64,000 nucleotides of DNA, taken from positions 9,674,001 through 9,738,000 of the forward strand of contig OZ249436.1 in assembly GCA_965235115.1 (NCBI GenBank). Reading direction: 5' to 3'. The DNA is from Laetmonice hystrix (lineage: Eukaryota). This document shows, in pieces, positions 48,501-51,500 of this stretch. The notes below the pieces were generated by a model that did no database searches, was not told the origin of the DNA, and was given only the letters and a program-made list of their open reading frames with translations. The position numbers and the translations under genes were made by a program. The stretch's first letter is position 1, and each line of letters begins with the position of its first letter.

Positions 48501-51500
48501 CAAGGCAGACCGGTAACATCTGCTCGGGTCAGACCCAAGGCAGACCGGTAACAACATCTAGCATCATATCGTGCACGTACCATTTTTATGCAGGCCATCT
48601 TTCCATCCATGAATCCAAGGTGAACCTTTGTAACACAGCAGACGGATCGACATGATTCACTTATTAACCTACACTACTTAACCCTGCAGGTAGGTATTCT
48701 TACTGCCGAGTTGACGTAAGCCTGACAGTACGGGTTCGTATCTTAGGGTGACAGCACTAAATAGGTGGGATCACACACACAGGAGGGAGGGGAGGGGAAG
48801 GGAGGGAGGACAGGTGTCGGGTTGGGAACTTACCCACATACCAACATGGTTTCCCAATTTTTCACCGTGTTTCTTACCAAGGTCCAGTACTTTGTGGGCA
48901 ACTTGATCAAAATTACCCTTTCATGATTTAACGATTAATTGACGGGGTGGTGTAAACTATGGATTTGTGCAGAAGAGAAGACGGTTTGGTGCATACAGGA
49001 AGCACTTTGAATTTCTAAGGGAAATATATACAACATTATTTTCAAAAGTGTTGAAATCTGTGAGAGGACTAACAGAAGATGGCATGCATTGTGGTTCTGG
49101 TGGACCTTTGTATTTGTACATAATTTAATATTCTTTCCAAGGATTCGTCACACATAACAGGTACTTTTGAACGATCAATGAAGCTGTAGAGAATGCAACT
49201 ATGGATTCTCTTCAATTATTTCCCACTTCAGGAGGAGACTGGGATGGTTTCTGTCACACACATACATTGTGTCACACTTACCATTTTCTCACAAGCCTTC
49301 TTGCCGTCCATGAACCCACGGGGAATGACGTTTGGCGTCAGCAGCTCATAGCGCTGACGGAATTCCTGGAAGAGGATGCGGTTAGGGAAGCCCTGCCGGC
49401 AGATTCGGATGCCCTCGAGGACACCGTTGCATCTCAGCTGGTCAAGCACAAGCCCAGCATCAATCTTTCCTGCCTAAAAATAAACACACATACAGAAAAT
49501 AAACATGTGCTTTCATAGAAGTAATAATGGCCACATCTTTTTCAATCTGCACTACTGAAATAACCTTGGATTGGTCATTCCAGTGAGATAGATGGTATAA
49601 ATTACACAACCATTTCAACTAATGTAGTTTCAAGATTAATTCTGAGTTGTACTTTACCTTCTTCTCATGGTTGGGTATGATGCAGCGAACAAAGTTAGGG
49701 CTGGTATTGTTGAGGGTCTGCATCAGGCGCTGCAGCTGTTCCTTGTACAGCTGGCCCACAGTCCGGAACATTCCCTTCCTTGTACGAGCACCAAACGATG
49801 TCTCGTTGGCTTGGGCTGCGCCCATTCCCACTATCTCAGCGGCTGTAAATAAAGGTAAGAAGGCCCATTTAGATAGTTTTAAAGTTCTATCATCATTCAA
49901 GATCCCTCCTTGAAAACAAGTAAATTTGCAGTGTAACTGTAATGTCTTCGTTTCCTTTCCAATCTAAATGTAATTTTCCTTGACACCAACGTTTTATTTT
50001 AACACTGCATCTAGATGCTCTGCCTGATGCTCCTCTAAAAAATAATAAATAAATAATGGTATCCTTTGGAAGAAAATAAGAAATGAAGCTTTCTATAAAT
50101 GTTTGCAGCATCTGAGTGAAGACTTGCAGACCAAAATCTTAAATGGGTTTGTTGCACTTTCAATGCACTAATGGAATCATTTATTTCCTGACACATGGTG
50201 GTGTCAACTGGCTTCAACACCAACTCGGCAAACAACACAAAACCAAACAGAGGAACAATAAAGATTTGTGATGTTCTCAACACATGCAAATTAAACAACT
50301 TAAAATCTGTAAATGATCACTCTTTCATTTAAACAACTCTCGTAGAAAAATTTAGTAAATCATGCTGACATCGGGAAAGCCTCCTTGTCTGTTTATCAAC
50401 ATCAATAAAAAAATAAATGTGCCATTCACTCATGGGGAAACGAAAAGATGGGACAGAACGTCTGGAAAGAAAACTCCATTCAGGATAAGAAAAGGCCTAC
50501 CCTGGTTCTTGGAGTGCATTGCCTTTTTTATAGTTGTCAAAGTGGGAACATAAACTATAACGGAAAGAAACACAAGTGGCCTGTAATCCATTGTCTGTTC
50601 CTTGAATGTTCCCCGAATCTCTTCAGAACATCAAACCCTCAATGAAGAGATCACTTTTATCGATTTAACCCATAGTACAAGCCCCTTAGTGTCAAAAGCT
50701 GTTAAAATACCCGAGTTGTTCGCTTTTGTCCCAGAGAGAGCCACTTGTAGCTTTGTGTACTCACCGTCTCTCCAGATGGTGCGCGTGAAATCCTCGGAGG
50801 AACTCTGAAGAAGGCTGACGACGTTTTCATTGAGAGGATCCATGTTCTTCAGCAGCCACTTGTCACACGAATAGTCCACCTGACAACGGAAACTTACTGT
50901 TAGTAACAATATTTATAGACCCTGGTAGCAATATAAACAATAGTGTCCACAACATCAGTAACCTTACATCCTACCCTCCTCTGACCGAATGCACTCACCT
51001 TGCCGGCATAATGAATGAGGCTGAAGCTGGCCTTCTCCCTGAAGTCGGGTTTCTGGAACTTGGGGTGCGTGGAATGCTGCGCTGTCAACTTGTCCACCAA
51101 AGTGCGGTCCGTGGCTTTTGGGAACCAGCACTCCTCATCCACCAGGGCAAAGATGCCCAGAGGCTGTAAGGATAGAACAAAACCCACCTTTATTCTATTG
51201 CTTGGCATAATACATTAAAAAACAGCTTTCTATTTGCAGAGTCCCTCTTCACTGTCTGATTGAAGTGACCGCCCTAAAAGCCCCATTGTTTCATCTGATT
51301 TTTAAAAACTTGCTCCATAATCAAAGCTAGTCTCTACAGAATTACAGAAACGGAGGCCACAAATGTTCTTTACTTTTTCCAATAGGTCAATGGTGGGCTG
51401 AAGGTCGAGTCCAAAATCGATGAACGTCCATTCAATGCCTTCCCGCTGGTACTCCTCCTGTTCTAGGATGAACATGGTGTGGTTGAACAGCTGCTGCAGT

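Follow-up and report, generated by a model that had tools for sequence, protein, structure and literature searches.

A diverged copy of a converter segment in an intron of a predicted non-muscle/smooth myosin II heavy chain gene of Laetmonice hystrix: a candidate cassette exon

The H2d motif of vertebrate COE/EBF proteins arose through a tandem exon duplication followed by a new splice site, giving a phase-0 cassette that sets a diverged copy of a helix beside the original (PMC2394523), and it is in this arrangement that it resembles the segment examined here. In striated muscle myosin heavy chain (Mhc) genes, converter variants are encoded by duplicated, mutually exclusive exons (cluster 10, exon 11 in Drosophila), in which a duplicated converter stands beside its parent with few residue changes (PMC3912159; PMC2257972), again a likeness to the present case. 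For non-muscle myosin II, splice inserts are described in loops 1 and 2. These B1/C1 and B2/C2 inserts of vertebrate MYH10 and MYH14 are short, optional, in-frame cassettes of the motor that change kinetics or regulation by tissue (PMC3535348), and a small in-frame insertion into a myosin motor is comparable to them. According to the same source, the converter is the link between motor and lever arm and also forms part of the head-head contact by which this myosin is turned off (PMC3535348). A further likeness is provided by the amphioxus "mirages", among them a case (BflGb9) where the 3' end of an exon and its donor were copied into the adjacent intron (PMC3087553).

A converter insert or converter exon in an invertebrate non-muscle myosin II was not found in the literature searched, which covered few subscription journals and no supplements. 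In squid, a converter insert of non-muscle myosin II has reportedly been observed in the nervous system and, if real, it would reduce the novelty of the case presented below.

The DNA analysed, called the window in what follows, is a stretch of 64 kb from the annelid Laetmonice hystrix, and its features are collected in Table 1. By its sequence, the host gene is a non-muscle/smooth myosin II heavy chain (the class of MYH9/10/11/14 and zipper) and not a striated Mhc. The exon from which the copy derives, here called the parent, scored 105.7-118.8 bits against structures of MYH9/10/11/14 and no more than 91.4 bits against striated myosins. Furthermore, the spliced protein is 75% identical to a Lamellibrachia protein and, in a tree built with FastTree on 21 of 26 rows, the modelled protein is placed in a clade (support 98) with the Lamellibrachia protein and two other proteins. 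The model starts at 61972, the first ~230 residues being encoded 5' of this position and outside it. A previous sequence-only reading of this DNA had named arthropod Mhc converter exons, Mrp and catchin as precedents; all of them are striated Mhc systems, and the gene is the non-muscle/smooth paralogue.

Table 1. Features of the myosin gene and of the intron that carries the converter copy (window coordinates).
Feature	Position	Strand	Remark
Predicted non-muscle/smooth myosin II heavy chain gene	30553..61972	-	model of 31 exons coding for 1760 residues
Parent exon, 192 nt, SH2-SH1 helix to mid-converter	49282..49473	-	phase 0 at both ends
Parent's acceptor region, 12/13 complementary to the copy's 3' end (48582-48594)	49469..49481	-	post hoc
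Weak phase-0 cryptic donor inside the parent exon, GTCATT after AAC	49328..49330	-	score 1.9
Intron stretch of 14 nt, 13/14 complementary to 48588-48601 in the copy	49076..49089	-	post hoc
Cluster of 5 donor-like sites in 90 nt, with ACCATG (48850-48845) and a phase-0 donor (48842)	48834..48917	-	
Pure pyrimidine run of 30 nt	48781..48810	-	155 nt upstream of the candidate acceptor
Weak candidate acceptor, ...GTTACAAAG, AG at 48627-48626	48626..48645	-	score 2.1
Candidate cassette exon, 45 nt, phase 0 to phase 0	48581..48625	-	diverged copy of the parent's last 45 nt
Candidate donor GTACGT after ATG	48575..48580	-	score 7.3
Minisatellite, 35 bp x 8.0, 99% matches	48275..48553		begins 28 nt past the candidate donor
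Constitutive exon that follows, 161 nt	47347..47507	-	codes for the remainder of the converter and the beginning of the lever arm (IQ motif)

That the parent is fused to the SH1-helix exon, as had been remarked before, is correct but no local oddity, since 30 of 80 short read-through ORFs of relatives are likewise unbroken at R^Y and extend as far as the KM boundary; 20 of the 80 have an intron at R^Y. Judged from these ORFs, the exon is most often unbroken and ends at KM, which weakens the option of a lost mutually exclusive pair. The read-through ORFs P0359, P0394, P0414, P0336 and P0338 suggest more intron positions in the converter stretch, namely after PK, inside the next Gly and after GKK, besides R^Y and KM.

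The copy stems from the last 45 nt of the parent (49326-49282) and lies inside the intron that follows this exon, at a spacing of 701 nt measured from the parent's matching end. The two sequences share 33 of 45 nt over the whole unit and 27 of 36 over the GFMDGK..KM core, and the translation of the copy gives 15 residues, 10 of which are those of the parent. The peptide match of the copy scores 53; across the six frames of the window the runner-up reaches 25, and 300 intron shuffles reach 32 at best. Its DNA local score of 54 faces a best value of 34 in 300 shuffles. The likeness between copy and parent is not due to chance. Moreover, the copy is unique among the introns of the gene, all 30 of 30 tested, in which no second intron duplicate of flanking exons was found. 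A converter duplicate with a preserved GFMDGK..KM and a preserved GTACGT donor, as first reported for this intron, is thereby borne out, and the five synonymous differences named at that time are all present.

The homology begins at an AG and stops 7 nt into the donor, a feature that counts for a cassette; the resulting 51-nt repeat (D2), which spans the exon end plus 7 intron bases, is 76% identical over 51 nt. The extent originally proposed, 48581..48670, stands for 48581-48625, but the remaining 48626-48670 bear no significant likeness to the parent. Neither flank of the copy aligns to that of the parent (the fraction of controls as good being 0.14-0.75), and the weak resemblance of 48790-48626 to the acceptor and 5' part of the parent, which may stand for a decayed copy of the whole exon, is equalled by 14-16% of controls. 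The copy is absent from the tandem-repeat list of the window and the spacers show no likeness. A 701-nt tandem unit was ruled out, identity along that diagonal being only 0.25 and 0.24, and further degenerate copies at 48886 (GKKHGEKL) and 47971 were rejected at a score of 21, equal to the shuffle mean.

The copy is homologous to the adjacent exon, is bounded by an AG and a GT, has a length of 45 nt with phase 0 on both sides (both flanking introns being of phase 0) and contains no stop, all of which count for a cassette exon. Donor and acceptor matrices were trained on the gene's own splice sites, one training acceptor being misplaced by 7 nt. On this scale the candidate donor outscores 12 of 29 real donors and is the third-best GT across exon plus intron, which counts in the same direction; the hexamer GTACGT is also found after the exon ending at 44953. 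The candidate acceptor ranks 26th among 100 AGs of the intron, with just 3 of 27 real acceptors below it, and its A at -3 together with its weak score counts against a cassette. Four uses of the copy had been listed in the earlier reading; among them the 45-nt cassette fits best: where the homology begins at its 5' edge there is an in-phase AG, and the donor matches the real ones of the gene in strength. In terms of reading frame, plausible uses of the copy would be the cassette (49282 to 48625) or a swap from 49330. Acceptors at 48889-48673, upstream of the copy, lead into an in-frame stop, while those at 48668 and 48659 require a phase-2 donor, either very weak or deleting much of the exon. 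The motif TCTGCTGTGTT, shared before the candidate and next acceptors, is matched by 14% of shuffles and was rejected.

The minisatellite next to the candidate donor has no other occurrence in the window, and each of its units has CAG|ATG on the minus strand. Repetitive open frames at 36111-37061 and 17845-18495 point to minisatellites as well, one of them in the 7.6-kb last myosin intron.

Relatives offer no sign of the inclusion form. Of 262 anchored homologues (275 examined), 261 have a span RQRY..SKIFF of 46 residues, and in none is it longer by 15; by set, this length is found in 118 of 119 full-length proteins (120 examined), and in 76 of 76 (84) and 67 of 67 (71) cluster members, sets composed mostly of mollusc and insect isoforms with much redundancy, with two named annelids only and no cephalopod protein. 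A tandem motif within 60 residues occurs in 0 of 455 motif-bearing proteins. An inclusion form is expected to gain 14-18 bits on the profile, so that of a close relative should rank among the best matches; none is present among the best 120 of 5293 profile matches (proteins of 113-2000 residues). When the copy's ORF was used as query, no protein of 31-102 residues with three common 5-mers was found. Among the best 150 of 2030 profile matches (50% cluster representatives), eight rows with two stretches and one with three are intron read-throughs or mispredictions. Finally, metagenome contigs scanned for two MDGK motifs 15-45 nt apart returned 64 loci, 0 of 64 being myosin. Given that no inclusion form is seen among relatives, the copy would be lineage-restricted, rarely included or unused. 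As a separate observation, most of the tandem-MDGK loci (L001-L064) encode a bacterial helicase-like protein, presumably Mfd, with QMDGK...FMDGK 39 nt apart. At the level of single residues, the Ile found at the E>I site of the copy is natural in 12 homologues, 11 of them vertebrate MYH11 and one from a chiton, and counts for a cassette, while Met at the K>M site is found in 0 of 172 distinct homologue segments and counts against it.

With a likelihood put just short of even, the copy is read here as a weak-acceptor cassette exon that would give a tandem repeat of the converter loop together with the initial 8 residues of its helix. According to the proposed mechanism, an old internal duplication would have carried the end of the converter exon and its donor into the next intron, where an in-phase AG would now border the duplicate and turn it into a 45-nt cassette exon. 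Owing to the weak acceptor, the cassette would mostly be skipped, and some cell type may include it. In the AlphaFold model of the homologue P0030 (at most 83% identical to its alignment partners, mean pLDDT 76 and about 88 at the converter helix), this helix spans residues 747-758 and the exon junction falls between M754 and I755, which counts for a cassette; mapped on the same model, the copy encodes a 7-residue loop and the first 8 residues of the helix. Because the splice junction lies inside the helix, an unrelated insert would break it. Inclusion of the copy, on the other hand, would double the loop along with residues 1-8 of the 12-residue helix, and the duplicate's 8 residues would rebuild the whole helix with the next exon, this time carrying K>M and E>I, while about 15 residues would, to judge from the homologue model, loop out. 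The outcome, in keeping with known roles of the converter, may be changed kinetics or a changed head-head autoinhibition.

If such a cassette is used, the converter helix would be variable by tandem inclusion, and one annelid gene could, in a manner open to testing, supply non-muscle cells as well as the smooth muscle of the gut; a study on Platynereis reports expression of the orthologue class in gut smooth muscle (PMC5167519). A further step, which is regarded as doubtful, is that a single-copy annelid gene makes a second motor through a 15-residue insertion: the duplicate would take the place of the original in the fold, act as a helix swap in a span otherwise fixed in length and install the MYH11-type Ile. 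Splicing would then yield a smooth-muscle-type motor, an outcome that vertebrates reached convergently by gene duplication. As it stands, the copy is a peculiarity, unproven and so far from one genome, at a position where a much-studied motor keeps its length fixed.

The explanation that survives best next to the cassette, although it is held to be somewhat unlikely, is that of a dead splice-boundary duplicate of the mirage type, in which the exon end and donor would have been copied, then separated by intron growth, left unspliced from the outset or at a later stage, and allowed to decay. The homologues without an insert and the weak acceptor agree with it. Moreover, in amphioxus BflGb9 the 3' boundary of an exon is duplicated with splicing undisturbed (PMC3087553). 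The myosin gene itself contains a comparable product at its last acceptor, where a 44-nt unit stands twice, head to tail, with 43/44 bases identical (30769-30682, minus strand). The first AG of this pair would lead to a shifted tail of 19 residues in place of 43, and the duplication is apparently recent and non-coding, so that this genome does make such copies without function. The converter copy differs from it in being single, distant and old and in having its own AG. An unspliced duplicate would also need the in-phase AG at the edge of the homology by chance, and a 701-nt tandem young enough to keep 33 of 45 nt should show likeness in its flanks, where none was found.

Whether the copy bears the mark of selection was addressed by simulating a constrained parent with either a neutral or a constrained copy and keeping the runs with 11-13 differences. 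Ten or more of the 15 residues remained identical in 8-16% of neutral copies, a frequency compatible with decay, and for this reason the original suggestion that the synonymous differences imply constraint is correct as to the differences but weaker as to what follows from them. When absence of stops and a kept GT were added, the neutral probability was 0.042-0.073 against 0.35-0.86 under selection; in a 12-codon window with 10 identities it was 0.0065-0.013 against 0.08-0.42, the value of about 0.01 for a kept frame, GT and 10-of-12 core standing against a dead duplicate. The simulations thus favour constraint roughly ten-fold before ascertainment and model bias, a moderate support. In fact, the ratio is too generous, as the selected simulation protects the GT and forbids stops by construction and it was the conserved residues that drew attention to the copy. 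The pattern of the differences is itself mixed: at the four-fold sites of the core, 3 of 3 differ from the parent, which counts for a cassette, while codons 1-3 of the copy differ at replacement sites only, which points against constraint, and one codon carries three changes, which counts against a cassette. Furthermore, the parent keeps accruing synonymous changes, so an excess of them is expected even for a dead copy. If the copy is unused, it would represent a splice-boundary duplicate of some age and would warn against taking synonymous differences from a live parent as proof of constraint.

An exchange of segments, considered improbable, would start from the cryptic donor at 49330 and join it to 48625, replacing 16 parent residues by 15 and leaving a near length-neutral converter. 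This site is the sole phase-0 GT donor near the matching point, the span would change by just one residue, and spans of -1 (1 of 59) and +1 (16 of 59) exist among diverse myosin II proteins; in addition, the gapped alignment CAAAC-GTC / CAAAG-GTT scores about the same as the ungapped one. The cryptic donor, however, faces a donor of score 9.5 only 48 nt away, and no significant overall RNA structure (z 0.13) masks this stronger site. Folding of 49340-48520 was no better than that of shuffles. The complement at 49089-49076 was equalled by 1 of 89 control exon windows and has a pairing probability of 0.12; for the complement in the parent's acceptor region the pairing probability of 0.88 comes from a 1-kb global fold and is unreliable. 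Both short complements involve derived bases of the copy.

A headless isoform made from an internal promoter is judged quite improbable. In it, a first exon ending at the cluster of donor-like sites (48917-48834) would join the copy, or the copy itself would end the first exon, yielding a lever-arm rod. The cluster, possibly the end of an internal first exon, is the densest of the 31 kb scanned, and its ACCATG is followed by a phase-0 donor in frame with 48625; nevertheless, windows with four such sites are present elsewhere in the gene. Headless products of this kind, Mrp and catchin, are known for striated Mhc, and the possible internal start is the likeness, but they begin after the motor and light-chain domains (PMC3912159). 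A rod also gives no reason for half a converter or for keeping the Gly-Phe upstream of the first Met, and no headless member is found among the anchored cluster members.

Most improbable is a relic of a mutually exclusive pair, in which a whole exon (192 nt, or the 70-nt vertebrate type) would have been duplicated and either the 5' part decayed or the first copy fused upstream, because, for all the faint likeness of 48790-48626, the R^Y intron of some relatives and a converter exon fusion reported for louse striated Mhc (PMC2257972), that likeness is not significant, the SH1 helix as the most conserved part should persist best and not worst, the unbroken exon prevails among relatives and no phase-2 donor is left at R^Y.

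Outside the myosin gene, two exons of an ECSIT gene (PF06239) lie at 14034-14933 (minus strand), and a 944-codon open frame with a proline-rich second half at 7297-10128 (plus strand) matched no Pfam family over the 900 residues tested. A weak match to a renin-receptor-like membrane segment at 24282-24479 (minus strand; PF07850, E 0.0059) is below the cut-off. The open frame at 1921-2286 (minus strand) is without Pfam match and resembles by eye the beginning of a PDZ domain like those of PDZ-LIM proteins.

Set against the described systems, the copy lies outside the exon clusters of striated Mhc and is not a typical mirage. Compared with the Mhc converter exons, it belongs to another paralogue and, with 45 against 192 nt, allows no exon-for-exon swap; neighbouring exons of similar length with their own acceptors are not what is seen here, the parent's first 147 nt having no significant copy. 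The mirages consist of adjacent tandem units 81-100% identical (BflGb6; PMC3087553), whereas the myosin gene has one copy, 701 nt off and 73% identical, with a possible coding signature and an AG of its own; as in mirages the unit spans a splice boundary, but it is neither head-to-tail, nor minisatellite-like, nor highly similar. The B and C inserts lie in loops 1 and 2 and are not copies of a neighbour (PMC3535348), while the myosin copy is a duplicate within the converter helix. In COE H2d a donor is the new site, it is the upstream copy that diverged, and inclusion is shown and compulsory (PMC2394523); in the myosin gene an acceptor would have this role, divergence is on the side of the downstream copy, and inclusion is a candidate only. 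On this comparison, and with confidence slightly short of even, the candidate cassette would work like COE H2d and would play the part of the B and C inserts.
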